This document shows positions 1 through 26,890 of a DNA stretch of 64,000 nucleotides, piece after piece. The first letter of the stretch is position 1. Each line of letters starts with the position of its first letter. The stretch covers positions 73,244 through 137,243 of the forward strand of contig DAOUJX010000060.1 in the NCBI GenBank assembly GCA_034422075.1, given 5' to 3'. The stretch is from Dehalococcoidia bacterium (GTDB lineage Bacteria > Chloroflexota > Dehalococcoidia > Lucifugimonadales > Australimonadaceae). The notes under the pieces were generated by a model, which did no database searches, was not told the origin of the DNA, and saw only the letters and a list, made by a program, of their open reading frames with translations. The position numbers and the translations under genes are program-made.

Positions 1-2
1 CG

Positions 3-3985: not shown

Positions 3986-3987
3986 GG

Positions 3988-4521: not shown

Positions 4522-4522
4522 C

Positions 4523-5221
4523 GTGGCGGCGCTCCTTGCCAACGTCCGCGCCGTCCTGTTCGACCTCGACGACACCCTGCTCGACACCTACTCGGCGCGC
4601 ACGCGCGCCATCGCCAGCGCCTTCGCCGACGCCGGCATCACGGAGCCGAGGGCAGATGCGTTCATGGAGCGGTACAACGGCTTCGGCTTCGACAGCGTAC
4701 TGCTGGAGGTTGAGCGAGCGCATGGTGGAGGCCTCGGCCTGATGGAGGCGTACCGCCGCGCCTACGCGCTCCGGGAGGCATCACAGGTGCGCGCGTTTGA
4801 TGGCATCGCCGAATTGCTGGCGTTGCTTGCCGGAGCGGATCGGCAGCTCGGCGTCGTCACCTCGAAGGCGGGCTACCGCGACTTCGAGGGTGCGCGATTG
4901 GGCGCGACCTACGAATTGGAGGTAAGCGGCCTATTGCGCTACTTCGACGTCGTGGTCAGCGCGGACGACGTGACGCGCCTCAAGCCGGACGCCGAGCCGG
5001 TGGAACGCGCGCTGAAGAGCCTGGCCTGCGCACCCGCCGATGCCGTCATGGTGGGCGATTCAACGTCCGACTTCGGCGCAGGGCGCTCGGCGGGCGCGTG
5101 GGTATGCTACGCGCGCTGGGGCGGCCGTTCGCCAGGCCCCGAGTTTGAGGGCGCCGAGCCCCACTACGCGGTCGACACCCCCGCGCAACTTGCCGCGCTG
5201 CTCGGGGCGGGGGGCCGTTGA
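4523..5221 (+). CDS. HAD-superfamily hydrolase (subfamily IA phosphatase-like)
   Basis: HAD motifs [10 protein letters not shown] (DxDxT), VVTSK and VGDSTSD. GTG start at 4523. Confidence 0.8.
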
Positions 5222-5265
5222 CGGGCGGCGCGGGGCGCGGGGACAATCGGCGCACGGAGGTGGGT

Positions 5266-6450: not shown

Positions 6451-6452
6451 CG

Positions 6453-7409: not shown

Positions 7410-7464
7410 TTGCCGCAGGGGAAGGGGTCGACTGAGGGGTATCCTATGCGCATGGCAGCGGGGC

Positions 7465-9399: not shown

Positions 9400-9444
9400 C
9401 GGCGCGCGCCACCCAAGCGCCTCCTCGCAAGACCAGGAGTAAGG

Positions 9445-10920: not shown

Positions 10921-11016
10921 GGTGTCCTACTTGGCGCCGCGTCAATAATAGCGCGTGTTCGAATTGTGCGCTACGCAGGATTGCTGTTTTTCTGGCAATG
11001 CAGAATTCAACTATTC

Positions 11017-11043
11017 TTGACAACAAGAAATCCGGCATATAGC
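11017..11043 (+). promoter_or_regulatory. putative sigma70-type promoter of the parA cassette
   Basis: TTGACA (11017-11022), 15-nt spacer, TATAGC (11038-11043), within the only strongly A/T-rich intergenic tract (10921-11044). Confidence 0.3.
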
Positions 11044-11044
11044 C

Positions 11045-11854
11045 TTGCCACCGCATATCGGTGTGCCTATGCCAGACCCGCGGCAGCCAATGATACTCAC
11101 AGTCGCCAACCAGAAGGGCGGCGTTGCCAAGACGACCACCTCCGTCAACCTCGCCGCCTGCTTTGCCGAGCAGGGCAAGCGCACCCTCCTTGTCGACATG
11201 GACCCGCAAGGCGGCGACGCCGTCTGCCTCGGCATGGACACGACTGTCCTCGAACGCTCCATCTACGACGCGCTCGTCAAGCCCGGCGTTACGGTGGGCG
11301 ACGTGCTGGTCAGTACCAACTTCGGCTTCGACCTCGCCCCCGCCAACATCGACCTGGCCGGCGCGGAGATCGAACTGAAGCAGGCGCTCGCCGCCGAGAC
11401 GGTACTCCAGCGCCGCCTTAGGCCGCTGCACGAACAGTACGACGTCATCGTCATCGACACGCCCCCTTCCCTTGGCATCCTCACCGTCAACAGCCTGACC
11501 GCCGCCACCGAGATACTCATTCCCATCGCCTGCGAATACATGGCGCTGCGGGGGCTGCGGATGCTGCTCGACACGGTCGAGAGCGTCAAAGAGGTGACCA
11601 ACCCCAACCTGCACATCCTCGGCATCCTCGCCACGCGCTACGACGCGAGGACGGTAAATGGGCGCGAGGTCTACCAGTACCTAGGTGAGTTTGCGGAACG
11701 CGAGGGGCTTCGGCTCTTCCCCTATGTCATCCGCCAGTCCGTGCGCTTCATCGAGGCGCCCGGCTACCAGACGCCGCTCGTGCTGTGGCGTCAGAACGTC
11801 GACGGCGCCAAGCAGTACCGAAACGTCGCTAGGGAGATCATCAATGGCTACTAA
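11045..11854 (+). CDS. parA: ParA/Soj-family partition ATPase
   Basis: Deviant Walker A NQKGGVAKTT, LLVDMDPQG and VIIDTPPS. Start uncertain: TTG 11045, ATG 11069 or ATG 11090. Confidence 0.85.
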   Translation: MPPHIGVPMPDPRQPMILTVANQKGGVAKTTTSVNLAACFAEQGKRTLLVDMDPQGGDAVCLGMDTTVLERSIYDALVKPGVTVGDVLVSTNFGFDLAPANIDLAGAEIELKQALAAETVLQRRLRPLHEQYDVIVIDTPPSLGILTVNSLTAATEILIPIACEYMALRGLRMLLDTVESVKEVTNPNLHILGILATRYDARTVNGREVYQYLGEFAEREGLRLFPYVIRQSVRFIEAPGYQTPLVLWRQNVDGAKQYRNVAREIINGY

Positions 11855-12203
11855 GGGCAAGCGGCCAAGTTTTGCATTCCCCGAACTCGAGAGCCGCGGT
11901 CGCCGCACCATCCTGCGCTCCGCTGAGGAGGTGCAGGCCGAATTGGAGGCGCTCGACCGCACTGCCGTAGAGGTCGATGCCGCTCCAAAGCGCGTCAAGG
12001 TTACCTACCGCTTCCTGCCCGAGGCGGTCGAGGCGGTCGAGGACATCCGCCGCCTCTTGCGGCGCAACCACGGCGTCCGCAAGGTCAACCGCGAAGACAT
12101 CGCCCAGGCTGCCGTCCTCGAAGCGCTACGGCAGTTGGAGGAGTACGGCGCGGGCTGCTTCCTCGTTGACCAGTTCGGCGGCACCGAGGCCGACGACTCC
12201 TAA
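11844..12203 (+). CDS. small ParA partner protein, ribbon-helix-helix-like (ParG-type centromere-binding candidate)
   Basis: 119 aa from ATG 11844, overlapping the last 11 nt of parA. Basic N-terminal peptide MATKGKRPSF. The KVTYRFLPEAVEAVEDIRRLL...NREDIAQAAVLEALRQL pattern fits a beta-alpha-alpha (RHH) fold. The tracked ORF 11685..12203 starts inside parA. Confidence 0.5.
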   Translation: MATKGKRPSFAFPELESRGRRTILRSAEEVQAELEALDRTAVEVDAAPKRVKVTYRFLPEAVEAVEDIRRLLRRNHGVRKVNREDIAQAAVLEALRQLEEYGAGCFLVDQFGGTEADDS

Positions 12204-13084
12204 GACGTGCGCGGCGCGACGAACCCCGCCTTCCTGCGCCACTTGGGCGCGACCTTCACCCACAACTCCACGTACACCGGCCGTGCGAGCCGCTCCTCAA
12301 TGGCCGCCCGTGCCTCTACGCCCACTGTGCGCAGTGCCTGCCCGCCGCTCCCAATCAGCATCCGTTTCTGCGACTGCGCGTCAACGTAGATGACCGCGCG
12401 GACCAGGTCGCGCTCGTCCGCGCCGCGACGCACGTACTCCTCCACGTCCACCGCGACGTAGTAGGGAATCTCGTCGCGGTAGTGCTCAAAGACGCGCTCG
12501 CGGATGGCCTCGGCGATGAAGAATTCCTCCGGCCTGTCCGTCAGTGTCTCCGGCGCAAAGAGCGGCTCCTGCTCCGGCAGCGCGGCGGCCAGCTCGTCAG
12601 CCAAGGTGCCAACACCGTCGCCAGTGAGCGCGCTTAGCGGCACGATCTGCCGGAACGGGTGCGCTTCGGTGTAGGCCGCCATGATGGGCAGCAGCCGCGC
12701 CTTGGCCGTGGTGTCGACCTTGTTGAGCGCGAGCAGCGCCGGCGCGCGAGACTCGCGCAGCTGTTCCATGAACTGCCGCTCGACGTCGCCCGGCATGCGC
12801 GGCTCCGCGACGAGCACGGCAAGGTCAGCCTCGGCGAAGGCGGATGCCACCTGCCGCGCCATCGCCGCATCCAGCTCGTCTCGACCCTTGCGTAGGAAGC
12901 CCGGTGTGTCGAGCAGCGCGGCCTGAAAGCCCTCGCCGTGCAGCACGCCGAGCAGCTTGTGGCGCGTCGTGTGCGGCTTGGCGCTGACGATGGACAGCTT
13001 GTGTCCCACAAGCGCGTTCAGCAGCGACGACTTGCCCACGTTGGCGCGTCCGACGATGGCCACAAACCCGCTGCGAAAGGTCAT
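12200..13084 (-). CDS. era: GTPase Era
   Basis: GRANVGKSSLLN (G1), DTPG, NKVD, and a C-terminal KH-type region. Confidence 0.9.
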   Translation of the reverse strand: MTFRSGFVAIVGRANVGKSSLLNALVGHKLSIVSAKPHTTRHKLLGVLHGEGFQAALLDTPGFLRKGRDELDAAMARQVASAFAEADLAVLVAEPRMPGDVERQFMEQLRESRAPALLALNKVDTTAKARLLPIMAAYTEAHPFRQIVPLSALTGDGVGTLADELAAALPEQEPLFAPETLTDRPEEFFIAEAIRERVFEHYRDEIPYYVAVDVEEYVRRGADERDLVRAVIYVDAQSQKRMLIGSGGQALRTVGVEARAAIEERLARPVYVELWVKVAPKWRRKAGFVAPRTS

Positions 13085-13109
13085 GGGGCAATTATGGGGG
13101 ATGAGACGC

Positions 13110-13184
13110 TGGAGCGGGCGATGGGATTCGAACCCACGACAGCCTGCTTGGGAAGCAGGTACGCTACCACTGCGTCACGCCCGC
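13110..13184 (-). tRNA. tRNA-Gly (anticodon CCC)
   Basis: The reverse complement folds as a cloverleaf: GCGGGCG / ACGC-AGTGGTA-GCGT / CCTGC-TTCCCAA-GCAGG / GTGGG-TTCGAAT-CCCAT / CGCCCGC-T-CCA. 75 nt with encoded CCA. Confidence 0.9.
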
Positions 13185-13270
13185 ACCGCCGCCATTGTAG
13201 CCGCCGCTCTCCGACCCTGCCAGCCCGCGCGGTCGCCTGCGCGCCCATGCGGTAGACTAGTACGCACGCT

Positions 13271-14854
<1,584 letters not shown>

Positions 14855-14885
14855 GCGCGCGGGGCATTCTCAGCCCTCACCCCGG

Positions 14886-14909
14886 CCCTCTCCACCTCGT
14901 GGGAGAGGG
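14886..14909. terminator. hairpin between convergent cimA and FAD/Fe-S oxidoreductase genes
   Basis: CCCTCTCC (14886-14893), 8-nt loop, GGAGAGGG (14902-14909). No clear U-tract. Confidence 0.3.
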
Positions 14910-14916
14910 GACCTAC

Positions 14917-17847
14917 CTAATCCCGCAGCGCGTCGGCTAGGTATTCGGCCACGTGACGGGGGCGCTTGGAGGTGAAATGGCCGATCTGCTGGCGGCAGGA
15001 GATGCCGGAGACGGCTACGCGCCAGTCGCGCTTGTCGTCGGACTCGAGCGCGGGGAAGAGCTTGAACGCGCCCATCTGCTGCGATAGGTCGTAGTGCTCC
15101 TTCTCGAAGCCGAACGTGCCGGCCATCCCGCAGCAAGGCGAGTCGATAAGCTCCGCGGTGTAGCCGGGGACGGCATTCAGCGCAGACAGGGTCGGCGCGG
15201 CGCCGACGACAGCCTTTTGGTGGCAGTGGCCGTGGACCTGGATCGACGCCGATGCGCCGTCGGCGAATAAGGGCACGCCGTCGGCGTCCGCCGCCTCGTG
15301 ACGCTGCACCAGTTCGTCGAGCATCACCGCCTGGGATGCGACGACGGCGGCGGCCTCACTGCGCAGCAGGTCGGGGTACTCCTCTCGCAGAATGAGCAGG
15401 CACGAAGGCTCGGTACCGACGATCGGGACGCCCCGGTGCGCGTACGGCGCAAGCGCGGCGACGTTGGTCTCTGCCCAGCCCTTGGCCTTGGCGAGCAGCC
15501 CCTTGGAGATTGCGGGGCGTCCACAGCAACGACGCTGGCTTACGAGAGTGACCGAGTAGCCGAGCGCCTCCAGCACGCGCACCGCCGCCTGGCCGACCTC
15601 CGGGTGCATGTACTCGGTGAAGGTGTCGTTGAAGTAGACGGCCTCGCCGCGCGGCGCGTCCGCTCGAGTGCGGTGTCGCGCGAACCACGCGGAGAAGCGG
15701 CGTCGCGCGAAGCGGGGCAGCGGGCGCCGCCGCGAGACGCCGAGCATCCGCTCCACTAGCGCCCGCACGGGCGGCAGCGACGACAGCGCATTGGTAAGTG
15801 GCGCGAGCGCCTGCCCCGCGCGGCTGAGGCGAGCGATGTCGGCGAATGCGCGCACGCGCAGCGGGACGCGGCGCGTCTCCCAGCGCTTCGCCAGCACCTC
15901 CGCCTTGAGCTTGGCCATATCGACGTTGGAGGGACACTCCGCCTTGCACGCCTTGCACTCGACGCACAGGTCGAGCGCGGAATGGAGGCGGTCTCCCGTG
16001 AGGTCTTCAGCGGGAAGGCGTCCGGCCAAGACTGCGCGGAGCAGGTTTGCGCGGCCACGGGTCGAGTGCTCCTCCTCGCGCGTGACCATGAAGGAGGGGC
16101 ACATGCCGCCGTCGGTGCGCCGACACGCGCCCTGGCCGTTGCACAACTCGACGTGAGCGGCGAATCCCCCGTCCGTCGAGAAGTCCATGTAGGTGTCGAC
16201 CTCCATGTTGCGCGTCTCGGGACTGAGGCGCAGGTACTCGCGGATGCCGGGCGTCTCGATGATCTTGCCCGGGTTCATGATCCCATCGGGGTCGAACGCC
16301 TGCTTCAGCTCCCTAAAAGCGCCGTAGAGCTCAGGCCCGTACATCTTCTCCATGAACGCGCCGCGCACGATGCCGTCGCCATGCTCGCCGGAGAGAGAGC
16401 CCCCGAACTCGAGCACGAGGTCGGCCACCTCCGTAGCGATGCTCTCCAGCTTGTCGAGCCCCTCCTCCGTCTTGACGTTGACGATGGGGCGGATGTGCAG
16501 ACAGCCGGTGGAGGCGTGGCCGTAGTAGGCGGCCTCCGTGCCGTGGCGCCGGACGATCTCGTCGAAGCGCGCGACGTACTGGGGCAAGAGCTCGGGAGAG
16601 ACGGCGGTGTCCTCGACGTAGGGCAGCGGCTTGGCGTCTCCCTTGATGGCCATTGCAAGTCCGAGCCCCGCCTCGCGGAGCCCCCACATGTGCCGCTGCT
16701 GCGCGGGGTCGGAGGAGGTGACGATGGCGTAGCCGAGGCCGCGCCGTGTCAAGTCCTGCTTGACGCGCGCGAGCTTGGCGTCGATCTCCGCCAGCGTGTC
16801 GCCGTAGAACTCGATGAAGATGAGGTTCTGCGGCTCGCCCTCGACCCAGTCGAGGAGGTGGCGGAAGCCGGGGTTGATGCGGCAGTTGCGGATGATGAGC
16901 TCGCCTATCTGCTCCACGGCCGACGGCTCGTGCTCGAGTATCGCAACCGTCGCCTCCATCGCCTCGACGAGACCGTGGAAGTGGACGACGGCGGTGCCTC
17001 GCAGCTTGGGCACGGGCACGAGGCTCACCATGGCCTCGGTGACGACGGCGAGCGTCCCTTCCGATGCGCCGACCATGCGCGTGAGGTTCATGGGCGCATC
17101 ATTGACGAAGTCGTCGAGGTTGTAGCCGCTGACGCGCCGGAGGATCTTGGGGAAGCGCCGCTCCACGTCGTCACGGTGCTCGTAGGCGATGCGTCGCACC
17201 TCGCGGTAGACGCGGCCCTCAAGCGTGTCCTGCGACATCCGCCGCTCCAGCTCCGTGCCGCCTGCAGGGTCGAATCGCGCGCGGCTGCCGTCGGAGAGGA
17301 CGACCCTGACCTCGCGGATGTGGTCGAGCGTCTTGCCGTAGATGACGGAGTGCGCGCCGCACGAGTTGTTGCCGATACCACCGCCGACGGTGGCGCGTGC
17401 GCTGGTGACGGGGTCGGGCGCGTACATCAGGCCGTAGCGGCGCACGGCGGCGCTCAGGTGGTTGTTGACAATGCCCGGCTGCACGCGCGCCCAGCGCTCC
17501 TCCGGCTGCACCTCGAGCACCTGTCGCATGTACTTGGAGAAGTCAAGAACGAGCGCGTGGTTGGCAGTCTGGCCCGCGAGGCCGGTGCCGCCGCCGCGCG
17601 GAAGGACGGGAACGCCGTACTCGCGGGCGACCCGCACCGCCGCCTCGACGTCGTCCGCCGTCTGCGGCACGACGACGCCGACGGGCTCCATCTGGTACAT
17701 GGAGGCGTCGGTGGCGTAGAGCGCACGGTTGTAGCGGTCGACGCGGACGTCGCCGGCGACCTGGGGGCGCAGGCGCTCGGCGATCTCTTGCACATCTCGC
17801 TCCGGCAGCGTTGCCGCCTTGCGCGCACTCTCATACAACAACGGCAC
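14917..17847 (-). CDS. FAD-linked oxidase fused to Fe-S/CCG domains (GlcD-GlcF fusion, YdiJ-like)
   Basis: 976 aa. N-terminal FAD-binding PCMH-type domain (RGGGTGLAGQ), a central CxxCxxCxxxCP motif (CVECKACKAECP), and C-terminal CCG-type cysteine motifs (CCGRP, CCGMAG). Confidence 0.8.
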   Translation of the reverse strand: MPLLYESARKAATLPERDVQEIAERLRPQVAGDVRVDRYNRALYATDASMYQMEPVGVVVPQTADDVEAAVRVAREYGVPVLPRGGGTGLAGQTANHALVLDFSKYMRQVLEVQPEERWARVQPGIVNNHLSAAVRRYGLMYAPDPVTSARATVGGGIGNNSCGAHSVIYGKTLDHIREVRVVLSDGSRARFDPAGGTELERRMSQDTLEGRVYREVRRIAYEHRDDVERRFPKILRRVSGYNLDDFVNDAPMNLTRMVGASEGTLAVVTEAMVSLVPVPKLRGTAVVHFHGLVEAMEATVAILEHEPSAVEQIGELIIRNCRINPGFRHLLDWVEGEPQNLIFIEFYGDTLAEIDAKLARVKQDLTRRGLGYAIVTSSDPAQQRHMWGLREAGLGLAMAIKGDAKPLPYVEDTAVSPELLPQYVARFDEIVRRHGTEAAYYGHASTGCLHIRPIVNVKTEEGLDKLESIATEVADLVLEFGGSLSGEHGDGIVRGAFMEKMYGPELYGAFRELKQAFDPDGIMNPGKIIETPGIREYLRLSPETRNMEVDTYMDFSTDGGFAAHVELCNGQGACRRTDGGMCPSFMVTREEEHSTRGRANLLRAVLAGRLPAEDLTGDRLHSALDLCVECKACKAECPSNVDMAKLKAEVLAKRWETRRVPLRVRAFADIARLSRAGQALAPLTNALSSLPPVRALVERMLGVSRRRPLPRFARRRFSAWFARHRTRADAPRGEAVYFNDTFTEYMHPEVGQAAVRVLEALGYSVTLVSQRRCCGRPAISKGLLAKAKGWAETNVAALAPYAHRGVPIVGTEPSCLLILREEYPDLLRSEAAAVVASQAVMLDELVQRHEAADADGVPLFADGASASIQVHGHCHQKAVVGAAPTLSALNAVPGYTAELIDSPCCGMAGTFGFEKEHYDLSQQMGAFKLFPALESDDKRDWRVAVSGISCRQQIGHFTSKRPRHVAEYLADALRD

Positions 17848-17970
17848 CGGCGCTTACCTCCCTAGACGCGTGAGGGGGATTGTAGCGGATGGGGAGGGAG
17901 AGGCCCCACCCCCGACGATCTAACCCCTTGCGGCGATCCACATACGCGGGCTTAGCGCTACTCTATAGCC

Positions 17971-18594
17971 ATGTCTGACCAGTGCTCCCTCCTTCCCGAT
18001 GCACCCGACGGCACGCAGCAAGCGCCAGTGGCGGGCCTGCACTACCGGCCTTCCTTTCTCTCACCTGATGAGGAGGCTGCGTACATCAGACGCATCGACG
18101 CGAGCGAGGATGCGTGGCTCACCGACCTCAGCCGCCGCGTGCAACACTACGGCTGGCGGTACCACTATGCCCAGCGCACCATCACTGCCGACTTGCGTAT
18201 CGGCCCTTTGCCCGACTGGCTGCAGATGCTCGCTCAGCGCCTCTACGAGGAGACCGGCCTCTTCGAGCGTCCCCCCGAGCAGGTCATCGTCAACGAGTAC
18301 GAGCCAGGCCAGGGCATCGCTTTGCATACCGACCACCCGGGTTTTGGTCCAGCCGTCGCGACGATCTCGCTCGGCGACGAGTGGGAGATGGGCTTCTCGC
18401 GCCGTATCGGCAAGGACGAGGTGAAGGCGCGAAAGATGCTGGCGCGCGGTTCGGCCCTCATCCTGACGGGTGAGGCGCGGCGGCACTGGCGGCACGGCAT
18501 CGCCAAGCGCGCCACGGAGGGTGGCCGCCGCGGGCGCAAGCGCAGGCGGCGCCTGTCCCTCACCTTTCGCACGGTCATCCAACCGCTCTCCTAA
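17971..18594 (+). CDS. 2OG-Fe(II) oxygenase, AlkB-like
   Basis: VIVNEYEPGQGIALHTDH (HxD iron ligands), ...HGI..., and C-terminal RLSLTFR (2OG-binding Arg region). Confidence 0.7.
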   Translation: MSDQCSLLPDAPDGTQQAPVAGLHYRPSFLSPDEEAAYIRRIDASEDAWLTDLSRRVQHYGWRYHYAQRTITADLRIGPLPDWLQMLAQRLYEETGLFERPPEQVIVNEYEPGQGIALHTDHPGFGPAVATISLGDEWEMGFSRRIGKDEVKARKMLARGSALILTGEARRHWRHGIAKRATEGGRRGRKRRRRLSLTFRTVIQPLS

Positions 18595-18622
18595 CGCATT
18601 GCCGTGATGCTACCCTGTAGCG

Positions 18623-19966
18623 GTGTTTGAGACGCTGACCGATAAGCTCACGTCCGTCTTCACGCGCCTTGGCAATAAGGGGCGGCTGGGCGAGGCGGAC
18701 GTCGATGAGGCGCTGCGCGAGGTTCGGCTCGCGCTCCTTGAGGCCGACGTCAACTTCCGCGTCGCGCGCGAGGTCATCGAGCGCATCCGCGCCCAAGCCA
18801 CCGGCGAGGCGCTGCTGCGCGGCATCTCGCCCGGCCAGCAAGTCGTCAAGATCGTCCATGAGGCGCTCGTGGAGTTGCTCGGCGGCGAGAACCGCGACCT
18901 CGCGCCCATGTCGTCATCCAAGCCCAACGTCCTGATGCTCATCGGCCTGCAGGGGTCGGGGAAGACGACGACTGCGGCCAAACTCGCGCTGAACCTGCGC
19001 CGCCGCCAGCAGCGCGCGCTGCTCGTTGCAGCCGACCTGCGCCGCCCCGCCGCAATCGACCAGCTGGAAACGCTGGGCAAGCAGTTGGACGTGCCGGTCT
19101 ACCGCGAGAACGCCGCGCCCGACCAGGCGACGCGCGTCGCCGCCAACGGTCTGAAGCAAGCCGAGCGCATGGGCATGGCGTGGGCCATCGTCGACACCGG
19201 CGGGCGTCTCCATGCGGACGACGACCTGATGGCAGAGCTGGAGGAGATGAAGCGCCGCCTCGACCCTGCCGAGGTGCTGCTGGTCGTCGACGCGATGACG
19301 GGGCAGGACGCCGTGAACGCTGCGGAGGAGTTTCACGGGCGTATAGGGCTGACGGGCCTCATCCTCTCGAAGCTCGACGGCGATGCACGCGGGGGCGCTG
19401 CGCTCACGGTGGCGCACGTCACGGGCGTGCCCGTCAAGTTCGCTGGCACCGGCGAGAAGGCAGACGCGCTCGAGGCGTTCCACCCCGAGCGGATGGCATC
19501 GCGCATCCTGGGTATGGGCGACGTGGTAACCCTGGTCGAGCGCGTGCAGGAGCAGGTGAGCGCGGAGCAGGCGATGGAGCTGGAGCGCAAGGTGCGCCGC
19601 GCCCAATTCGACCTGGACGATTTCCTTCAGCAGCTGCGGCAGATACAGAACATGGGCTCGCTCGCGTCGCTGATGCAGATGGTGCCCGGATTCCGCGCGC
19701 TATCCTCGCGGATGTCGCCGGACGCCCTGGACGACGGGCGGCTCAAGCGTCTTGAGGCCATCATCTCGTCTATGACGCTTTGGGAGCGCCGCCACCCCGA
19801 CCAGTTGACGGGGAGCCGGCGCCGACGGGTTGCAGCCGGCTCCGGCACGACCCCTGCAGACGTCAATCAGCTGCTGGGACAGTTCAAGCAGATGCAAAAA
19901 GTGATGAAGCGCCTATCGTCCGGCAAGGTGCGCAGCCTCAGCGGGCTGGGCCTGGCGGGGGTGTAG
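18623..19966 (+). CDS. ffh: signal recognition particle protein Ffh
   Basis: GLQGSGKTTTAAKLA, DTGGR, SKLDGDARGGAAL, and a Met-rich M domain (MGSLASLMQMVPG). GTG start at 18623. Confidence 0.95.
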   Translation: MFETLTDKLTSVFTRLGNKGRLGEADVDEALREVRLALLEADVNFRVAREVIERIRAQATGEALLRGISPGQQVVKIVHEALVELLGGENRDLAPMSSSKPNVLMLIGLQGSGKTTTAAKLALNLRRRQQRALLVAADLRRPAAIDQLETLGKQLDVPVYRENAAPDQATRVAANGLKQAERMGMAWAIVDTGGRLHADDDLMAELEEMKRRLDPAEVLLVVDAMTGQDAVNAAEEFHGRIGLTGLILSKLDGDARGGAALTVAHVTGVPVKFAGTGEKADALEAFHPERMASRILGMGDVVTLVERVQEQVSAEQAMELERKVRRAQFDLDDFLQQLRQIQNMGSLASLMQMVPGFRALSSRMSPDALDDGRLKRLEAIISSMTLWERRHPDQLTGSRRRRVAAGSGTTPADVNQLLGQFKQMQKVMKRLSSGKVRSLSGLGLAGV

Positions 19967-19970
19967 CGAG
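19927..19970 (+). repeat. direct repeat copy 1 (attL-like), containing the functional ffh stop codon
   Basis: GGTGCGCAGCCTCAGCGGGCTGGGCCTG[G]CGGGGGTGTAGCGAG recurs at 20850-20893 with a single difference (G at 19955 versus C at 20878). Confidence 0.9.
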
Positions 19971-20050
19971 AGCTAGGGGTAGCCTGCGGCACCGGGCGAA
20001 GCTAATGGCGAGTCCCGCCCTCAAGGGTTAAGCTGCAAAGGACTGGACTG

Positions 20051-20812
20051 TCAGCGGGGCTGGTTCACCGAAAAGCAAGGGCGACATTGTGGCCTCCGAT
20101 AAGTCACCGCCCGAGGCTTGCCACACCGATGGCACTTCTTCTCTCGATAGTCCTGATTGGCATACTGGGCCCATTGCGGGTAGCAATTAAGGCATAGAGG
20201 CCGCTCAGGGTTCAGTTCGATTACTCCACCACAGCGAATACAGTGACCGGTGCCATTTGCGAGGGTATTGGCGGCGACAGCGGCTACTTCCTGGGTTAGT
20301 TTCCGAACTCCTTGCACAAGCTGATCTCGAGCCTTGGGCTTGGCTAGTACCCTGCCCCTGCCCAAGAGCCTAGTCTTCACGTAGTCCCGAACATGTTTCT
20401 GTTCGGGGATATCCAAATCAAAGGCGACCTCGTAGGAGTTCTTGGTGGAAAACTCGGTAAGGTTCATCGACCCCACCAACACACGGAACTCATTCAGGTA
20501 GGCCTTGGCGTGCAGGCCCTCCACAGCGACGACTTCGAAATCGTTATTCCGTAACCATCGTACTGCTTTGCCTCCTGTAATCTCGTTTTCATCCCGTGTT
20601 ATGACGCTGACAACGACTCCACGCTTAACGGCGTCTCGGAGTTCGTCCTGAAGGTGGCGCCACAAGTCCAGGTAAGGGGAGACTAGGGTGACTTGTTTTC
20701 GGGCATCGCGAACCAACTCGACAATCTGGTTGGCGATTTCTCCGTCTTGATGGAATCGGGGCATTTGGCGAAAACCATATCGTCGCCCTAGCGTGTTGAC
20801 AACGACAAGCAT
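20051..20812 (-). CDS. HKD (phospholipase-D family) nuclease-like domain fused to two C-terminal CxxC-x12-CxxC zinc ribbons
   Basis: HKD-like motif LHAKAYLNEFRVLVGSMNLT. C-terminal CIRC-x12-CLNC and CHRC-x12-CRPC. The likely true start is ATG 20764 (MPRFHQDG...), just downstream of the internal promoter. The maximal ORF starts at 20812. Confidence 0.7.
   Translation of the reverse strand: MLVVVNTLGRRYGFRQMPRFHQDGEIANQIVELVRDARKQVTLVSPYLDLWRHLQDELRDAVKRGVVVSVITRDENEITGGKAVRWLRNNDFEVVAVEGLHAKAYLNEFRVLVGSMNLTEFSTKNSYEVAFDLDIPEQKHVRDYVKTRLLGRGRVLAKPKARDQLVQGVRKLTQEVAAVAANTLANGTGHCIRCGGVIELNPERPLCLNCYPQWAQYANQDYREKKCHRCGKPRAVTYRRPQCRPCFSVNQPR
20774..20802 (-). promoter_or_regulatory. sigma70-like promoter of the HKD-nuclease gene
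   Basis: On the minus strand: TTGTCA (20802-20797), 17-nt spacer, TATGGT (20779-20774), then 9 nt to ATG 20764. This implies a leaderless or very short-leader mRNA. Confidence 0.5.
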
Positions 20813-20849
20813 CCGGCCACGCTCGGGCGCCCTGCCCCAATGAGAGCAC

Positions 20850-20893
20850 GGTGCGCAGCCTCAGCGGGCTGGGCCTGCCGGGGGTGTAGCGAG
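20850..20893 (+). repeat. direct repeat copy 2 (attR-like), a displaced duplicate of the ffh 3' end
   Basis: 43/44 identical to 19927-19970. It would encode ...LSGLGLPGV* if joined to ffh. Confidence 0.9.
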
Positions 20894-20924
20894 CGCAGCG
20901 CTACGTGGGCGGATGCCAAGAGTA

Positions 20925-20949
20925 GGGGCGGGCCGTAGCGGCCCGCCCC
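20925..20949. terminator. strong GC hairpin, a likely bidirectional terminator (native ffh terminator / Rieske oxygenase terminator)
   Basis: GGGGCGGGCCG-TAG-CGGCCCGCCCC (11-bp stem, 3-nt loop), followed by ACACTTTCG on the plus strand. Confidence 0.6.
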
Positions 20950-20975
20950 ACACTTTCGTCAAGAGATGCCGGCTC

Positions 20976-22340
20976 CTACCCGGCGGGGACGGTTTCGTCC
21001 TCGCGCTCAGAGGCAGGAGTGGACTTGGCTGCGCCATTCGACACGGCGCCGTTGGACTTCCCGCCCTGCAGCTTCCTGAAAAGTTCGGTGAGGGAGACCA
21101 TCGACATCGGCACCTCGTCCGCAGGCACGTTGTCGGGGTTGCGGAACCTGAAGGGCGCCTCGCGGCCGCCGAAGTGGCGCGTCACCACGAGCCGGCGCCA
21201 CTGCACGACCTCGGAGTCGGTGACGGACAGCGCCTCGGGCGCGCTGTAGCTCTGGTTGAGCATGACGCTGTTGTCCTGCATCGAGAAGTTCTGCTCGATG
21301 ATCCAGCGGTGGTAGGTGTAGTAGAGGAAGGTCTGCCACCAGCGCTGGATGCGGTTCTTGGGGTAGGTGCAGTGGTAGTAGAAGAGGCGCGTCTTGTTCT
21401 CCGCCACCGCCACGCACATGCGCGTGTAGAGGTCGTAGGCGAACTCGGTGCGGAACATGCCGGGCAGGTGGTGTCCGCCGCACCAGCGGGCGGTGCGCGG
21501 CGAGGGAACGTTGGCCTGCGCGCCCCTGACGTTCCACTTGAGCGCCCATGTCCAGAAGCGGCGCTTGCGGCTCTTGGGCCACTTAAAGCCCAGGCCGGGG
21601 TAGGTGTCTTGGATGGTGTTCTTATCGCCCCGCGCCATCATCCGAGAGGCCGTCACCTCGCCGCCGAAGCCGTTACCGACGAAGACGGGCGATTCGCCCT
21701 GGGCTCCGCGCGGCATGTACTCGCCCCGCAGCACGACCAGCGCGTTGCGGTGCAGGTAGTTGACGTGCGAGTCCATCGAGTTCTCCAGCGCAACCTCCCA
21801 GTTGCAGTCCCAGTAGGTGACACCGAAGGTGAGGAGCGCGTCCTTGTCGAAGAACTCCTCCGGCACGTCGTCCTCAATGGGGGCGGGCGCCTCGTTGCCG
21901 ACCCAGACGAACACCATTCCCTTAAGGGTCTGCGTCGGGTACTTGGTGGCTGCTGTGCCCGGCTTGCCGCAAATGGCGGCGTCGGGACCCTCCGACAGTA
22001 CAGCGACGTTGACGCCGTCGCCGTCAAACGTCCAGCCGTGGTAGGGGCAGGACACGTAGCCGGGCCAGTGGACGTCTCCCTCCGACAGCCGCGCACCGCG
22101 GTGCGGGCAGATGTCAGTTAGCGCGACGACCTCTCCCGCCTTGTCTCGGAAGACGACCAGATCGTCGCCGAGGAGCGAGATGCGGATGGCACGGCGCTTG
22201 GGGACGCGCTTGTCTTGGACGAGGGGGTACCAGTAGTTGCGCAGGCCCATCTTGGGGATGAGGTGCCGGATGTCTCCGCTGAGCGACGGCACCTTGCCGT
22301 TGGAGTCCTGCTCGGTGTCAGGTGTGGAGTTTACGACCAT
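20976..22340 (-). CDS. Rieske [2Fe-2S] non-heme-iron oxygenase, alpha-subunit-like
   Basis: CPHRGARL...CPYHGWTF Rieske motif. Mononuclear-iron motif NWEVALENSMDSHVNYLH. Start re-set to ATG 22340 (MVVNSTP), preceded by GGAGG. The tracked ORF extends to 22550. Confidence 0.8.
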   Translation of the reverse strand: MVVNSTPDTEQDSNGKVPSLSGDIRHLIPKMGLRNYWYPLVQDKRVPKRRAIRISLLGDDLVVFRDKAGEVVALTDICPHRGARLSEGDVHWPGYVSCPYHGWTFDGDGVNVAVLSEGPDAAICGKPGTAATKYPTQTLKGMVFVWVGNEAPAPIEDDVPEEFFDKDALLTFGVTYWDCNWEVALENSMDSHVNYLHRNALVVLRGEYMPRGAQGESPVFVGNGFGGEVTASRMMARGDKNTIQDTYPGLGFKWPKSRKRRFWTWALKWNVRGAQANVPSPRTARWCGGHHLPGMFRTEFAYDLYTRMCVAVAENKTRLFYYHCTYPKNRIQRWWQTFLYYTYHRWIIEQNFSMQDNSVMLNQSYSAPEALSVTDSEVVQWRRLVVTRHFGGREAPFRFRNPDNVPADEVPMSMVSLTELFRKLQGGKSNGAVSNGAAKSTPASEREDETVPAG

Positions 22341-22443
22341 AATGGCCTCCCGTACGAATGCTCTTCGTAAGTAACGGAGCATAGGGAAGCAGGAAGCGCG
22401 TGTCAAACCGCTGGTGCTACACTGATGATGTAGTCGAGGGAGG

Positions 22444-23709
22444 ATGATGAGCACGACAGACACGCGTAGCGCACTCGCCACACTAGACCCGCAGCTCGCC
22501 GACGCCATCGACCGAGAGGTCGAGCGGCAGCGGCGCAACATCGTCCTCATTGCCTCCGAAAACTACGTCAGCCGCGCCATTCTCGAGGCGCAGGGCTCCG
22601 CGCTGACCAACAAGTACGCCGAGGGCTATCCGGGCCGCCGCTACTACGGTGGCTGCGAGTACGTGGATGTAGCGGAGCAACTGGCTATCGACCGCGCGTG
22701 CGATCTCTTCGGCGCGGAGCATGCGAACGTTCAACCGCACGCCGGGGCCCCGGCCAACATGGCCGCCTACGCCGCCCTGCTGGAGCCGGGCGACACCGTT
22801 ATGGGCCTCCAGCTCGACCAGGGCGGCCACCTCACCCACGGCAGCCCCGTCAACTTCTCCAGCAAGATCTACCGCTTCGTCTCCTACGCGCTCGACCCCG
22901 AGACGGAGCAGCTGGACTACGACGTCATCGTGCGCGCAGCGCGAGAGCACCGTCCCAAGGTCATCGTCGCGGGCTATACCGCCTACTCGCGCACAATCGA
23001 CTTCGCTCGGTTCGGCCAGATAGCCGAGGACGTAGGCGCGGTGTTAATGGTGGACATGGCGCACATAGCTGGACTCATCGCGGGGGGCGCACACCCCTCG
23101 CCCGTGCCGTACGCCGGCGTCGTCACATCGACCACGCACAAGACGCTGCGCGGGCCGCGCGGAGCGCTCATCCTGAGCCAAGAGGCGTATCGCCGCAACA
23201 TCGACAGGGCCGTCTTCCCCTATGGACAGGGGGGGCCGCTGATGCACACCATTGCCGCCAAGGCCGTCTGTTTCGCCGAAGCGAGCACGCCGTCCTTCTC
23301 CGACTACGCCCATCAGGTGGTGCGCAACGCCAAGGCGATGGCGGAGGAGCTGGAGGCGGGAGGCTTGCGCATCGTCTCAGGCGGGACGGACAACCACCTG
23401 ATGCTGGTCGACCTGCGCCCGCTGGAGACGACGGGCCAGGAGGCCGAGGAGGCGTTGGGGCGCGTGAACATCACGGTGAACAAGAACGCCATCCCCAACG
23501 ACCCGCAGCCGCCGCGCGTCACCAGTGGCCTGCGCCTAGGCTCGCCCGCCATAACGAGCCGGGGCTTCGGCATGGAGGAATCGAAGCGGGTAGCGGCGCT
23601 GATCGTGCGAGCGCTCAACTATCGCGGCGATGAGCGCGTGGAAGCGGAGGTGCGCGACGCAGTCGCCGAACTGACTTCGCAGCACCCCGTCCCGGGCCTC
23701 GACTACTAG
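22444..23709 (+). CDS. glyA: serine hydroxymethyltransferase
   Basis: [18 protein letters not shown] (PLP lysine). 421 aa. Confidence 0.95.
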
Positions 23710-23725
23710 GGGCGCGCCCCGTCTC

Positions 23726-24583
23726 CTACGTCTGGAAGAACTCGAGGCAGACCCGGTCGAATTCCTCGCGGTACTCGACCTGCGCCCAGTGGCCACACTT
23801 GGAGATGACGTAGAGGCGAGCGTTCTGGAAGCGCTTGAGCATCAGCAGGCCCACCTCCAGCGCACCGCCCTTGTCCTCCTGCCCCCAGACAAGAAGCGTG
23901 GGAGCGGCATTCTGCTCGAGGAAGGGGTAGTAGTCGATGCGGTGCTGCTTGGCGCGGCGCGCAGCTTGCTCCAATGCCACAGGGTCTGTGGCGGCGTCGA
24001 ACCGCTCCTGGATGACGTCAGGGGTGAGTAGGCTGGAGTCGTAGACGAGGCTCTTTGCCAGGCGCTCCATCTTCTCGATGGTCGGGCCCTCTCCCTGGTA
24101 GAACTTGACGATGTTGTCCAGCGCCTCCTGAGGCGTGGGCTGGAAGAAGACGACGTTCGTGGGCTGAGAGCCGATCATGACCAGATGCTTGATGCGGTGG
24201 GGGTAGTGGACGGCAAGGCCGAGGCCGGCTTGCCCGCCCATGGAGTTGCCAATGATGTCGGCGCTCTCGATGCCGAGCGCCTCCATGAAGTCGTTGATAA
24301 CCTTGCCAATCCAGCCGATCCATTCGTGCTCGAGGGCTTCGTCCGGGTACTCGGAGCGCCCCCAGCCAGGCATGTCGAACATGATCATGCGGTTGTTGAG
24401 GGCGAGGTCCTGGATGTTGCCCTTGAAGTTGCTCCACGCGGTTGCGCCGGGGCCGCCGCCGTGAATGCAGATGATGGGATCGCCGGTGCCTACCTCGTTG
24501 TAGTGGATGCGGATGCCGCCGGCGACAACCTCCTTGCTGGTTGATTCGTCCGTGACTGCCTGAAGCTCCTGAACGGTAGCCAT
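23726..24583 (-). CDS. alpha/beta hydrolase (meta-cleavage-product hydrolase-like)
   Basis: HGGGPG oxyanion region, GNSMGG nucleophile elbow, C-terminal CGHWAQ. Confidence 0.8.
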   Translation of the reverse strand: MATVQELQAVTDESTSKEVVAGGIRIHYNEVGTGDPIICIHGGGPGATAWSNFKGNIQDLALNNRMIMFDMPGWGRSEYPDEALEHEWIGWIGKVINDFMEALGIESADIIGNSMGGQAGLGLAVHYPHRIKHLVMIGSQPTNVVFFQPTPQEALDNIVKFYQGEGPTIEKMERLAKSLVYDSSLLTPDVIQERFDAATDPVALEQAARRAKQHRIDYYPFLEQNAAPTLLVWGQEDKGGALEVGLLMLKRFQNARLYVISKCGHWAQVEYREEFDRVCLEFFQT

Positions 24584-24739
24584 TTGGTCGCCTCCTCCGA
24601 TAGAGCGTTGCGTCGCGCAGGATAGGCGCGGGTGCGCACGTGGTCAATCGGGGGTAAGTGCCCCGCCGGATTTTGCGGCGCGCGTCGGATTTGCGGTAAC
24701 CTAGAAGCAGCGGCGCGATGAGCGTCCCTGCGTGGAACG

Positions 24740-26596
24740 ATGGAAAACAACCGGCGTATCGGCAACACCTTCATCTACCTCATCATCGGCGTGGCAGTCA
24801 TCGCCATCCTGTTCACGCTGTTCACCTCCGGCGACAACGCGCAAGAGGTCAGCCTCACGCAGGTGCTGAGCATGGCCAAGAACCGCCAGATTGACCGCAT
24901 CACGGTCGACGGCGACCGCCTCCTCATCACGCAGGCCAACGCGCCCAATCAGCCGCTCGTCGCCACCAAGGAGCCCGGCACCAGCGTCTTTGCGCTGTTA
25001 GAGGCAGAGGGCATAAAGCCGGCCGAGTTGGGCATCCAGGTCGACGTAAAGAAGTCGAGCGGTCTCGGCAACTTCTTCGGCATCCTCATCCAGTTCCTGC
25101 CGCTCATCTTCTTCGGCGCCATCTTGCTGTTCATGATGCGTCAGGCGCAGGGGACGAACAATCAGGCGATGGGCTTCGGGCGCAGCCGCGCGCGGTTGCT
25201 CACCGCCAACCGGCCTACCGTCAACTTCGCTGACGTGGCTGGCGTCGAGGAGTCGAAGGCGGAGCTAGAGGAGATTGTCGAGTTCCTGAAGTTCCCCGAG
25301 CGCTTCCTGGCCCTGGGCGCGCACATCCCCAAGGGCGTGCTGATGGTCGGCCCGCCCGGCACGGGCAAGACGCTGCTCAGCCGCGCCGTCGCGGGGGAGG
25401 CAGGCGTGCCCTTCTTCTCCATCTCCGGCTCCGAGTTCGTCGAGATGTTCGTGGGCGTGGGCGCATCGAGGGTGCGCGACCTGTTCGACCAAGCCAAGCG
25501 CAACGCCCCAGCCATCGTGTTCGTCGACGAGATCGACGCCGTGGGACGGCACCGGGGCGCGGGGCTCGGCGGCGGCCACGACGAGCGCGAGCAGACGCTC
25601 AACCAGATCCTCGTCGAGATGGACGGCTTCGACACGGGGACGAACGTCATCGTCATCGCGGCAACCAACCGCCCCGATATCCTCGACCCCGCTTTGCTGC
25701 GCCCCGGCCGCTTCGACCGGCGCGTGGTGCTCGACCTGCCCGACATTCACGGCAGGGTCGCGATTCTGAACGTCCACGCGAAGGGCAAGCCCCTTGGCGC
25801 GGACTTCGACGTAGAGGCGATTGCGCGCGCAACGCCCGGATTCAGCGGCGCCGATCTCGAGAACCTGGTGAACGAGGCGGCGATACTGGCAGCGCGACGC
25901 TCCAAGAAGGCCATCGAATACGATGAGTTCGCCGAGGCGGTCGACCGCGTCATCATGGGCCCCGAGCGGCGCTCGCGCGTCATCTCGCACAAGGAGAAGG
26001 AGATCGTCGCCTACCACGAGGGCGGCCACGCGCTCGTCGGCCACGTACTTCCATACGCCGACCCCGTGCAGAAGATCACCATCGTCTCGCGCGGCATGGC
26101 GGCGGGCTACACGCGCTCCGTGCCGGAAGAGGACCGCATCTTCCTTTCGCGCGCGCAGTTCATGGACCGCATGGCGATGGCCCTGGGCGGACGCGTGGCT
26201 GAGGAGTTGGCGTTCGGCGAGGTGACCACCGGTGCAGGCAACGACCAGGAGCAGGTGACGCAGATGGCGCGCGCAATGGTCACGCGCTACGGCATGAGCA
26301 GCAAGCTCGGCCCGCGCACCTTCGGCAAGAAGGAGGAGCTGGTCTTCCTAGGCCGAGAGATTTCGGAGCAGCGCGACTACTCCGAGCGCGTGGCGCAAGA
26401 GATCGACGACGAAGTACAGGGGATAATCCTGCAGGCGTACACTCACGCGAGACAGGTGCTCTCAGACCACTACGCCAAGCTTGTGCAGATCGCGCGCTAC
26501 CTGATGAAGAACGAGACGGTGGAGGGCGATTCGCTGCGTGAGCTGTTCAACTCGGAGGCGCCTCCCGTCGAGGGCGCGCCCGTGGCCGCCGGCTAA
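24740..26596 (+). CDS. ftsH: ATP-dependent zinc metalloprotease FtsH
   Basis: N-terminal TM helix, AAA+ [15 protein letters not shown], and zinc motif HEGGHAL. Confidence 0.95.
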
Positions 26597-26602
26597 CGGA
26601 GC

Positions 26603-26890
26603 CTACGAGCCGCCTGCGCCACCGTTGGCCGACTCACCCTCGTCCCCCTCGTCGAGCGGGAGTTCGCGGTAATAGATGCCCCACTTCTGCATCATGGCGG
26701 CGATCCGCGGGTCGTCTAGCGACGTGACCTCGCGCAGGAAGCCGGCGAGCGCATGCGCGTGCAGCTGTTCCGGCGCCGCGACCCAGGAGCCTTCGCTGGG
26801 GACGGCATAGAGCAGGCCCGCCTGGTTCTGCGAACGAATCTCGACGCGCGTCCCTCCCGAATCGTGCGTCACCGTGATGCCGTAGGCCAT
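26603..26890 (-). CDS. hypothetical protein (95 aa, acidic/Gly-rich tail)
   Basis: ORF fills the gap between ftsH and the JAMM gene. No family recognised. Coding status rests only on ORF and context. Confidence 0.4.
   Translation of the reverse strand: MAYGITVTHDSGGTRVEIRSQNQAGLLYAVPSEGSWVAAPEQLHAHALAGFLREVTSLDDPRIAAMMQKWGIYYRELPLDEGDEGESANGGAGGS

Follow-up and report, generated by a model that had tools for sequence, protein, structure and literature searches.

A single-gene nuclease islet between direct repeats at the 3′ end of ffh in a Dehalococcoidia bacterium: how does it move?

When genomic islands and prophages occupy the 3′ ends of tRNA, tmRNA or protein-coding genes, the repeat that bounds them corresponds to the gene end up to its stop, the gene is kept intact and the displaced copy of its end decays, and a tyrosine or serine integrase is encoded beside one of the att sites. 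The CIMEs of the streptococcal ICE and IME families, a recognised class of att-flanked elements without recombination genes, also carry attL/attR-like repeats at the 3′ ends of housekeeping genes, lack genes for recombination or transfer, and presumably depend for their movement on a recombinase acting in trans (PMC6323972, PMC5704250). They measure kilobases to tens of kilobases, and their att sites are common to them and to known ICEs or IMEs of the same species. Integron cassettes, which are minimal or promoter-poor, span about 1 kb and contain one gene; lacking a recombinase, they are moved as small circles by an enzyme encoded elsewhere. IMEXs, which are recombinase-less and placed between direct repeats, use the Xer recombinases of the host at the chromosomal dif site. 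Additionally, insertion sequences and transposons produce a short duplication of fixed length, and homing endonuclease genes split their own site without duplicating the target.

The islet that we describe here lies in a 64-kb window (the whole stretch of Dehalococcoidia DNA that was analysed, 64,000 nucleotides) and consists of one unit, with ffh on one side and a Rieske-type oxygenase gene on the other, among housekeeping neighbours. As in CIMEs, it is bounded by direct repeats at the 3′ end of a housekeeping gene and contains no recombination or transfer gene; unlike them, it measures 0.92 kb, holds a single gene and has no parent or helper element that could be found at this or related sites. 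Its repeat is a gene end up to the stop, as in islands and prophages, but no integrase accompanies it. Although it resembles integron cassettes in being a minimal one-gene unit of about 1 kb without a recombinase, it has no attC-like imperfect palindrome (RYYYAAC...GTTRRRY), intI, attI or array, and insertion at a gene end with a 44-nt duplication of host sequence is not an integron product. It is also recombinase-less and bounded by direct repeats like the IMEXs, in which the enzyme is that of the host. However, its repeat is the tail of ffh, which matches 8 of the 11 bases of the E. coli XerC arm and has no similarity to the XerD arm; as only the first 8 nt of the repeat resemble the XerC arm, a dif/Xer site was rejected. 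By contrast with the short fixed-length duplications of insertion sequences, those observed here and at two related loci measure 44, 48 and 39 nt, and the target, instead of being split as by homing endonuclease genes, is duplicated intact on both sides; to our knowledge, the phospholipase D (PLD) fold of the islet protein is not that of any homing-endonuclease family.

The target gene, ffh (18623-19966, plus strand), is essential and codes for the signal recognition particle protein (447 aa; Pfam SRP54_N, SRP54 and SRP_SPB), which shares 97% amino acid identity with the Ffh of a relative, L001. Its functional end is in the first copy of the repeat, at the left junction (19927-19970, plus strand), which contains 37 coding nucleotides of ffh (and not 38, as a previous sequence-only reading of this DNA had counted), the TAG (19964-19966) and four further nucleotides, in the register V R S L S G L G L A G V *. 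The second copy, at the right junction (20850-20893, plus strand), has no function; it is the duplicated ffh end, now displaced, and it runs on into the DNA that originally lay downstream. Alignment of both copies in the window bore out the 43 identities in 44 positions that had been reported, with G at 19955 and C at 20878. When one mismatch per side is allowed, the repeat grows to 51 nt (19923-19973 and 20846-20896), and short near-matches (GCA, then GC) are present at both junctions, each one base past the 44 nt. Neither half of the repeat occurs again in the 64-kb window, a third copy is absent from it, and it contains no other repeat-bounded islets or comparable direct repeats; a chance match of this kind was obtained in 0 of 100 shuffles.

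The mismatch at 19955 (plus strand) is private to the window, where G gives Ala, while C (Pro) is found in two public assemblies of the same sample and in the two relatives that have an empty site (see below). It is the sole difference between the window and the public scaffold ERZ23495174 scaffold_304 over 7,365 aligned bases, and the independent Logan assembly of SRR13587046 also reads C at this position. Consequently, the direct-repeat pair is identical at 44 of 44 positions in both public assemblies, and the public Ffh C-terminus is ...LPGV. At position 44 of the repeat, both copies have G where both empty-site relatives (L001 and L172) have A, and three more variants relative to L001 are common to the two copies. 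A host-derived duplication fits these variants at least as well as an imported copy of an att site.

The interior of the islet (19971-20849, 879 bp, or 923 bp for the unit of interior plus one repeat) has a foreign composition and is, as had been noticed from the letters alone, richer in A/T than its flanks. G+C is 0.53-0.57 in the islet and 0.64-0.71 in the flanks, the bin at 20001-21000 has the lowest G+C of the 64 bins across the window, and the GC3 of the inner gene is 0.59, versus 0.83-0.90 in five neighbouring genes. The same reading had placed one minus-strand gene in the interior, which is indeed occupied by a single minus-strand ORF (20051-20812), with no other of at least 75 aa except overlap artefacts, leaving a non-coding remainder of about 120-165 nt (about 80 plus 37-85). 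This interior is missing from L001 and L172, in which the ffh stop is directly followed by a hairpin and then by the Rieske gene, and thus the empty site that had been predicted exists in two relatives. The flanks of the islet align with positions 1-7344 and 7301-13341 of L001, with an overlap of exactly 44 nt, and they are collinear with the empty sites at 95.4% and 96.7% identity. The hairpin (20925-20949) lies between the convergent ffh and Rieske-type oxygenase genes, the latter (20976-22340, minus strand) being the right host flank. It had been described as terminator-like; its perfect 11-bp stem is real, but, as it has no T-run, the terminator scan does not call it. Since the repeat is confirmed, the interior is AT-rich and the site is empty in L001 and L172, the islet is a recent insertion that rebuilt the end of ffh and kept the gene intact, in agreement with the sequence-only reading. 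The insertion is younger than the split from relatives with approximately 96% nucleotide identity.

Nuc-type members of the PLD superfamily have one HKD motif, HxK(x)4D/N...GSxN, in a fold of approximately 150 residues, and form a single active site as dimers; they are metal-independent and use a phosphohistidine intermediate. The sole gene of the islet (20051-20812, minus strand) codes for a single-HKD PLD-fold (Nuc-type) nuclease domain followed by a C-terminal double zinc ribbon. This identity of the cargo was not part of the sequence-only reading, and neither was the family-level pattern described below. The longest ORF of the gene has 253 aa, and the alignment of homologues suggests that the true start is M17 (ATG at 20764); just upstream of this probable start, there is a match to the sigma-70-like promoter consensus, and to the consensus only (TTGTCA-17-TATGGT; 20774-20802, minus strand). 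The protein matches PLDc_2 with E=1.8e-10 and 41 bits (cut-off 27), its matches to DrmC, DpdK and NucT in PADLOC and NCBIfam are below the cut-off, and a profile search of the PDB returned NucT, Zucchini and BfiI. Its AF2 model (pLDDT 87) has its best fold match in Nuc (1byr; E=7e-11, TM 0.73). No fold match was found in the PDB for the double zinc ribbon, the CxxC pairs of which are conserved in the family alignment (A2). The protein contains the motif LHAKAYLNE...GSMNLT, and H101, K103, N117 and S115 are invariant in 26 homologues. Judging from this motif and from the modelled fold, the islet protein is a Nuc-type PLD nuclease with an intact HKD motif and predicted activity.

Proteins with similar organisation have been described. 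For instance, END nucleases, SauUSI, BfiI-like proteins and Nuc/NucT resemble the islet protein in having an N-terminal single-HKD PLD domain and a C-terminal domain to which the choice of substrate is attributed. Defence nucleases encoded by one gene, in which an N-terminal PLD domain is joined to a C-terminal sensor that varies, have been reported, and PLD defence nucleases are, like the islet gene, solo genes with a patchy distribution (PMC12191111). In the END type, the sensor is an inactivated EndoIII-like domain and the nuclease protects against phage (PMC12191111). The islet protein differs in its C-terminal domain, where a double zinc ribbon takes the place of the EndoIII-like, EVE, helicase or pseudobarrel domains. 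By analogy, it may work like the END-type modular class, but it is not a member of it. We infer that the cargo is most likely a stand-alone restriction-like or defence nuclease, in which the N-terminal PLD domain would be catalytic and the C-terminal zinc ribbons would serve as a DNA sensor.

The family of the islet protein comprises at least 886 clusters at E<=1e-30, which are uncharacterised and are now annotated as 'cardiolipin synthase-like'. A family member is usually a low-GC solo gene amid housekeeping genes, with a G+C nearly always below that of its surroundings, and the zinc-ribbon domain is invariably fused and conserved. Toxin-antitoxin and restriction genes are found among the neighbours of the family loci. 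The clusters are tiny (1-4 sequences on 1-2 contigs), unlike those of insertion sequences. Only one of 72,556 plasmid records, from a Hymenobacter plasmid, contained the family, and none was found in phages or in viral contigs. PLD genes with approximately 80% DNA identity are present in unrelated contexts, as is also seen at the protein level; the homology between related copies stops at the ORF, no more than about 4 nt from the stop codon, and the flanks are unrelated (tblastx). Distant PLD-only homologues were also observed in integron cassette arrays (L157, L158 and L153).

A flanking-repeat test applied to 47 family loci was positive for the window (z=26), L083 (z=11; 48 nt) and L144 (z=6; 39 nt), and the other 44 have no flanking repeat. 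In all three, the PLD gene is alone between the repeat copies, and the repeat is the tail of the upstream ORF, ending between -2 and +4 nt from the end of the stop codon. These three members are highly diverged (26-47% amino acid identity) and occupy three different targets. The downstream copy has decayed in L083, chiefly by G-to-A changes, and is down to 15 nt in L169, a locus related to L083, as would be expected for a displaced, dead gene end. L169 has SNase and PemK at the same hot spot. On account of its synonymous-looking differences, the downstream copy of L083 was also considered as an imported gene end; this reading is weakened, since L169 implies that the ancestral stop was probably TAG and most of the changes are G-to-A, like those of neutral decay.

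The sequence-only reading had taken the repeats for the attL and attR of a site-specific recombinase. The repeats are at most putative att sites, as there is no integrase in the islet or within about 10 kb, 80 further ffh loci have neither an element nor an integrase at the end of ffh, and no integrase or transposase family recurs among 150 neighbour ORFs of 35 family loci. Its statement that the islet has no mobility gene inside holds, as the single ORF is not a recognisable recombinase; no transposase of a known class (DDE, HUH, Ser, Tyr, DEDD or Cas1) was detected in the islet, for which Pfam, NCBIfam and PADLOC give PLD-type matches only. The core of the repeat is absent from viral contigs. 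Regarding end structures, the islet has neither terminal inverted repeats nor shared end motifs, its non-coding ends do not fold better than shuffles (z from -0.03 to 1.0), unlike an attC-like palindrome, and no Rfam match was found in 19700-21100. The gene ffh was also considered as a SaPI attachment site, but in the papers searched only ffs is documented as one (PMC12540744).

We tentatively favour, at somewhat less than an even chance, the explanation that the islet is a non-autonomous one-gene cassette, probably of the defence type, integrated in a Campbell-style manner by recombination in trans, since it encodes no recognisable recombinase. According to this model, a small circle in which the final 44-51 nt of ffh are also present would recombine once with the chromosomal ffh end, and this single Campbell-type crossover would duplicate the ffh tail and leave ffh intact; the recombination might be provided by an unlinked site-specific recombinase or by the homologous recombination of the host. 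Selection would preserve a gene end carried by the element as far as the stop codon, and repeats that finish there are what this model predicts. The recurrence of the architecture in two other lineages argues that the one-gene unit itself moves, rather than being the wreck of a larger element. On the other hand, the absence of a helper in the islet, the surrounding 10 kb or so, the 80 ffh loci, the 35 family loci and the viral contigs counts against this explanation, as does the fact that the family is nearly missing from plasmids and missing from phages. Additionally, the unrelated contexts of PLD genes with about 80% identity sit uneasily with a cassette that depends on a single att site.

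The choice that the sequence-only reading had left, between a remnant and a module mobilised in trans, can be narrowed, as the remnant is the weaker of the two. A larger integrative element bearing an integrase would, in that case, have lost its interior by a deletion that spared one cargo gene and the two att sites. Integrative elements are classically recognised by direct repeats at a gene's 3′ end, and deletion derivatives of this kind (CIMEs) are documented (PMC5704250). However, the repeats are perfect and the insertion postdates the split from the relatives with about 96% identity, an intact gene and only about 120-165 non-coding nucleotides are left, the same one-gene layout is found in two other lineages, and no parent element was seen at ffh (80 loci) or beside family members, so that this origin appears decidedly improbable. 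Foreign DNA could also have been captured once, by an illegitimate event at a staggered break or through template switching, with the duplication arising by fill-in and no dedicated mobility system. Such an event would agree with the identity of the copies, in which G at position 44 and the three variants with respect to L001 look host-derived, with the short near-matches at both junctions and with the failure to find a recombinase. Nevertheless, we consider it quite unlikely, as the same architecture and gene family appear in two unrelated lineages, all three repeats finish at a stop codon and, as far as we know, duplications this long are not a regular product of bacterial end joining. As the integrated order rests on one metagenome scaffold, it might even be argued that the chromosomal site is empty and that the assembler threaded in a 923-bp circle or another locus with the 44-mer. 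The Logan contig L085 (953 bp) consists of one unit plus a 30-nt (k-1) end overlap, which is compatible with a circle, and it runs from the interior into the repeat without a break at the ffh-side branch. However, the integrated form would yield L085 and L087 just as well, because a graph with k=31 collapses a perfect 44-nt repeat. The Logan contigs are short here through coverage (L088 ends inside ffh), the scaffold, of 174,610 bp, is collinear with L001 on both sides, and a 923-bp circle would have no replication gene; an assembly artefact is therefore extremely improbable. L085 was also considered as proof of a circle, since its left junction has C and not the G of the window, and was rejected, as the public scaffold also has C and the 44-mer collapses at k=31.

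A different possibility is that the islet is an autonomous one-gene mobile element, in which the PLD-zinc-ribbon protein would itself be the mobility enzyme, cutting and rejoining DNA through a covalent phosphohistidine and generating a duplication of 39-51 nt at gene ends. It has in its favour that three independent, diverged members are each the sole gene between repeats at three targets, that other mobility genes were not seen near any locus, that the homology of related copies stops at the ORF while their flanks are unrelated, that the G+C of the gene nearly always falls below that of the DNA around it and that the zinc ribbon is always fused and conserved. Moreover, PLD nucleases such as BfiI react through a covalent intermediate and are capable of transesterification (PMC2475615, PMC2853115). 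By contrast, the defence roles of PLD nucleases are well documented (PMC12191111). Copy numbers differ from those of insertion sequences, 44 of the 47 loci have no flanking repeat, terminal inverted repeats and common end motifs are missing from the islet, and the duplication left by a staggered cut does not predict a repeat boundary anchored at the stop. We know of no recombinase or transposase with a PLD fold, and a literature search did not reveal one either. On balance, self-mobilisation seems unlikely to us, and it is likewise unlikely that PLD-double-zinc-ribbon proteins are DNA-mobilising enzymes defining a new class of one-gene elements of approximately 0.8-0.9 kb that insert at gene ends and duplicate the last 40-50 nt of a gene up to its stop.

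If the cassette is moved in trans, it would be the smallest repeat-bounded integrative unit known to us, and single defence-type genes would travel as sub-kilobase circles that repair the gene in which they land. This would help to explain the solitary genes of foreign composition that are found amid housekeeping genes in streamlined genomes, such as those of Dehalococcoidia. If, instead, the nuclease moves itself, it would represent a sixth or seventh chemistry among the enzymes of DNA transposition and recombination, based on phosphohistidine, which is used by no known transposase or recombinase, and a function would be provided for the whole 'cardiolipin synthase-like' family of at least 886 clusters. 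In either case, three unrelated lineages in which the repeat finishes at a stop codon offer a regularity concrete enough to test.

The 44-nt direct repeat that bounds the islet (19927-19970 and 20850-20893) lies where the sequence-only reading had placed it, and its copies are identical at 43 positions, with G at 19955 and C at 20878. It had been said to include 38 coding nucleotides of ffh; the actual number is 37, followed, as described, by the TAG stop codon (19964-19966) and 4 nt. If one mismatch is allowed per side, the repeat extends to 51 nt. Each of its halves is found once in the 64 kb, no match was obtained in 100 shuffled sequences, and there is no further direct repeat of comparable quality elsewhere in the 64-kb window. 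The 879-bp interior (19971-20849) is indeed richer in A/T than its flanks (G+C of 0.53-0.57 vs. 0.64-0.71 outside); the islet is the lowest-G+C bin among the 64 one-kilobase bins, and the GC3 of its gene is 0.59, compared with 0.83-0.90 in five host genes. The hairpin at 20925-20949 is also real, with a perfect 11-bp stem, and it lacks a T-run.

As had been predicted, relatives with an empty site exist. The complete Dehalococcoidia MAG chromosome OZ220670.1 (L001), whose Ffh is 97% identical to that of the window, aligns in two blocks (window 12612-19966 with 1-7344, 95.4% identity; window 20846-26889 with 7301-13341, 96.7% identity) that share exactly 44 nt, and the 879 bp of the islet are absent from it. 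The Tara scaffold L172, which matches the repeat at 43 of 44 positions, is likewise empty, and the conserved hairpin and then the Rieske gene (20976-22340, minus strand, in the window) come directly after the end of ffh in L001 and L172 alike. The islet is therefore a recent insertion, younger than the split of these ~96%-identical genomes. At repeat position 44, both window copies have G, whereas L001 and L172 have A, and three further variants common to both window copies differ from L001 only; such shared variants fit the duplication of host sequence no less well than the import of an att copy.

Two ffh loci outside the window showed additional features. In L172 (1-1260; ERZ28653860 scaffold_138464), ffh homology starts only at about codon 283; it is preceded by ~270 bp of AT-rich sequence, in which a TGCAACGCG...TTGCAA-like motif recurs several times, and by a Fic/DOC gene on the minus strand. 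The contig may be chimeric, or this DNA may mark the right-hand junction of a larger ffh insertion with a ~500-nt duplication. In Oceanobacillus saliphilus (L032, 7343-7497), a perfect 29-nt direct repeat, with its partner ~130 bp away, is located just 3′ of the ffh stop; it bears no relation to the repeat in the window and probably represents a small repeat of the intergenic region.

The islet region is also present in a public scaffold (ENA ERZ23495174, NGUY21-1_SAMN17524325_METAG-scaffold_304, 174,610 bp), and the single difference from the window in 7,365 aligned bases lies inside the repeat, at 19955 (G in the window, C in the scaffold). Since the independent Logan assembly of SRR13587046 has C as well, the public repeat is perfect (44/44) and the public Ffh ends in ...LPGV; C is also found in both empty-site relatives, which share this C-terminus, while that of the window is ...LAGV. 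The two ends of the Logan contig L085 (953 bp) overlap by 30 nt, leaving a single unit of 923 bp. The contig passes from the interior into the repeat with no break at the branch expected on the ffh side, which could be explained by low-coverage tip clipping or by additional copies in circular or tandem form. Another contig, L087, begins with the final 30 nt of the repeat. Both are the expected k=31 graph output for a perfect 44-nt repeat, equally consistent with an integrated islet and with a circle plus an empty site. The integrated order is based on one long scaffold that carries the islet and is collinear with L001, and we consider an artefact highly improbable.

The single ORF of the islet (20051-20812, minus strand) encodes an N-terminal single-HKD phospholipase D (PLD) domain. 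As homologues begin near M17, its actual start is probably the ATG at 20764, just upstream of which there is a promoter-like TTGTCA-17-TATGGT. The protein matches PLDc_2 (E=1.8e-10) and, more weakly, the PLD components DrmC, DpdK and NucT, all under the family cut-offs. A profile search of PDB sequences retrieved NucT, Zucchini, a bacterial PLD and BfiI, and the top fold match of the AlphaFold model (pLDDT 87) was Salmonella Nuc (1byr, TM 0.73), followed by NucT, Zucchini, SauUSI and BfiI. The C-terminal ~65 residues form a conserved double zinc ribbon, CIRCG..RPLC..CY..WAEY.N..Y.E.FCHxCG...KPLCxxCY (20054-20263, residues ~184-253, modelled at pLDDT 88). Its only family match is a weak one to DZR_2, and no PDB fold matches it significantly; the domain may represent a small DNA-binding module that has yet to be described.

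The closest relative of the islet protein is only 48% identical, and clusters are small, with 1-4 sequences on 1-2 contigs. When 1.84 billion representatives were searched with a profile, 886 clusters were obtained at E<=1e-30, nearly all of them 225-270 aa long and sharing the two-domain layout. The family was detected in no viral contig or phage genome and on one of 72,556 plasmids. In contigs with context, its members are solo genes amid housekeeping genes, usually with a G+C 0.03-0.19 below that of their flanks. For four pairs with ~80% DNA identity (L103/L110, L122/L125, L125/L131 and L096/L099), no similarity of context was detectable, even by tblastx, and homology stops a few nt from the stop codon. 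No family of integrases or transposases appeared more than once among the 150 ORFs that neighbour 35 of these genes; there were three PIN toxins, two ResIII and one type I restriction subunit. Separately, contigs L158 (500-7800), L157 and L153 contain single ORFs arrayed in the same orientation, and after each ORF comes a 125-140-nt repeat that forms an imperfect palindrome (AACAACTGGATCAACCTGACAATGC ... GCATTGCAGGTTATCCAAATGTT). They look like integron-type cassette arrays, with a distant homologue that has the PLD domain only in one cassette.

When upstream and downstream flanks were scored against each other at 47 family loci (~44 distinct), repeats were evident at three: the window reached z=26, L083 z=11 and L144 z=6, and the fourth-ranking locus 1.9. 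A flanking repeat is lacking at the other 44. In L083, a Chloroflexota-type contig (G+C ~0.68), the segment 1403-1450, made up of the final 45 nt of a CocE/NonD peptidase gene and its stop codon, reappears with 77% identity at 2213-2260, directly 3′ of the PLD gene, which is alone in the 762-bp interior. In L144, from a low-G+C organism, a small ORF has a good ribosome-binding site, and a 39-nt repeat (18 nt of it perfect) reaches as far as the first base of its stop codon; the second copy of the repeat lies 5 nt past the PLD stop. At each of the three loci, the tail of the upstream ORF makes up the repeat, which ends -2 to +4 nt from the end of the stop codon; the PLD gene is opposite to the target in the window and in the same orientation in L083 and L144. 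The peptidase of the genome from which L169 comes and that of L083 share 91% identity, but the PLD genes found at this position only 47%; in L169, the variable site (4282-6408) retains 15 nt of the downstream repeat copy, followed by a staphylococcal-nuclease-like (SNase) gene and a toxin-antitoxin pair (PemK with a small upstream ORF). Because L083 and L169 hold different content there, the site after the peptidase gene acts as a hot spot.

Two details of these islets are recorded here. The L083 PLD gene shifts frame in a GGGAAAAACCC run (2085-2095), with the zinc ribbon continuing in the +1 frame up to 2190; the shift is either an error of sequencing or a genuine loss of function. Immediately after repeat copy 1, the window (19971-19976) and L083 (1451-1456) both have the hexamer AGCTAG, despite the opposite orientations of their PLD genes relative to the target; it is absent in L144, and the coincidence may be due to chance.

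The initial observation is confirmed and its interpretation supported in part: an insertion rebuilt the end of ffh and empty sites exist, but no integrase was found in the islet or within ~10 kb of it. That a one-gene unit was inserted recently by horizontal transfer, with ffh preserved through its duplicated end, is a robust conclusion. The mobile unit would carry a copy of the coding tail of its target gene, which selection would keep only as far as the stop codon, and a boundary at this codon is therefore expected. A single Campbell-type recombination with the end of the gene in the chromosome would integrate it, and the displaced copy would then decay; decayed displaced copies are observed in L083 and L169. 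A remnant of a larger element or a one-off accident are both unlikely, because the same one-gene repeat-bounded layout recurs in three unrelated lineages.

As the unit encodes nothing recombinase-like, the simplest reading is that it would be mobilised in trans, with the nuclease as restriction-like cargo. However, no helper was visible at the ffh loci, in viral contigs, among family neighbours or around the islet, the family is scarce on plasmids and absent from phages, close relatives of the PLD gene sit at unrelated sites, and the G at position 44 in both copies does not favour an imported att copy over a host-derived duplication. In view of these points, the PLD-zinc-ribbon protein might mobilise itself, for which we know of no precedent. 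The chemistry is possible, since PLD nucleases form a covalent phosphohistidine intermediate capable of transesterification (BfiI; PMC2475615, PMC2853115), but copy numbers are low, no terminal inverted repeats were found at the islet and most family loci lack repeats, so that we regard self-mobilisation as rather unlikely.

Mobilisation in trans agrees with two recognised classes: solo PLD defence nucleases, which are documented as modular (PMC12191111), and cis-mobilizable elements (CIMEs), which are flanked by att sites and, like the islet, have no recombination genes (PMC6323972, PMC5704250). The islet is a new, extremely small form of recombinase-less integrative element with an uncharacterised PLD-zinc-ribbon nuclease, and stop-codon-anchored duplications are a family-level regularity worth systematic attention.
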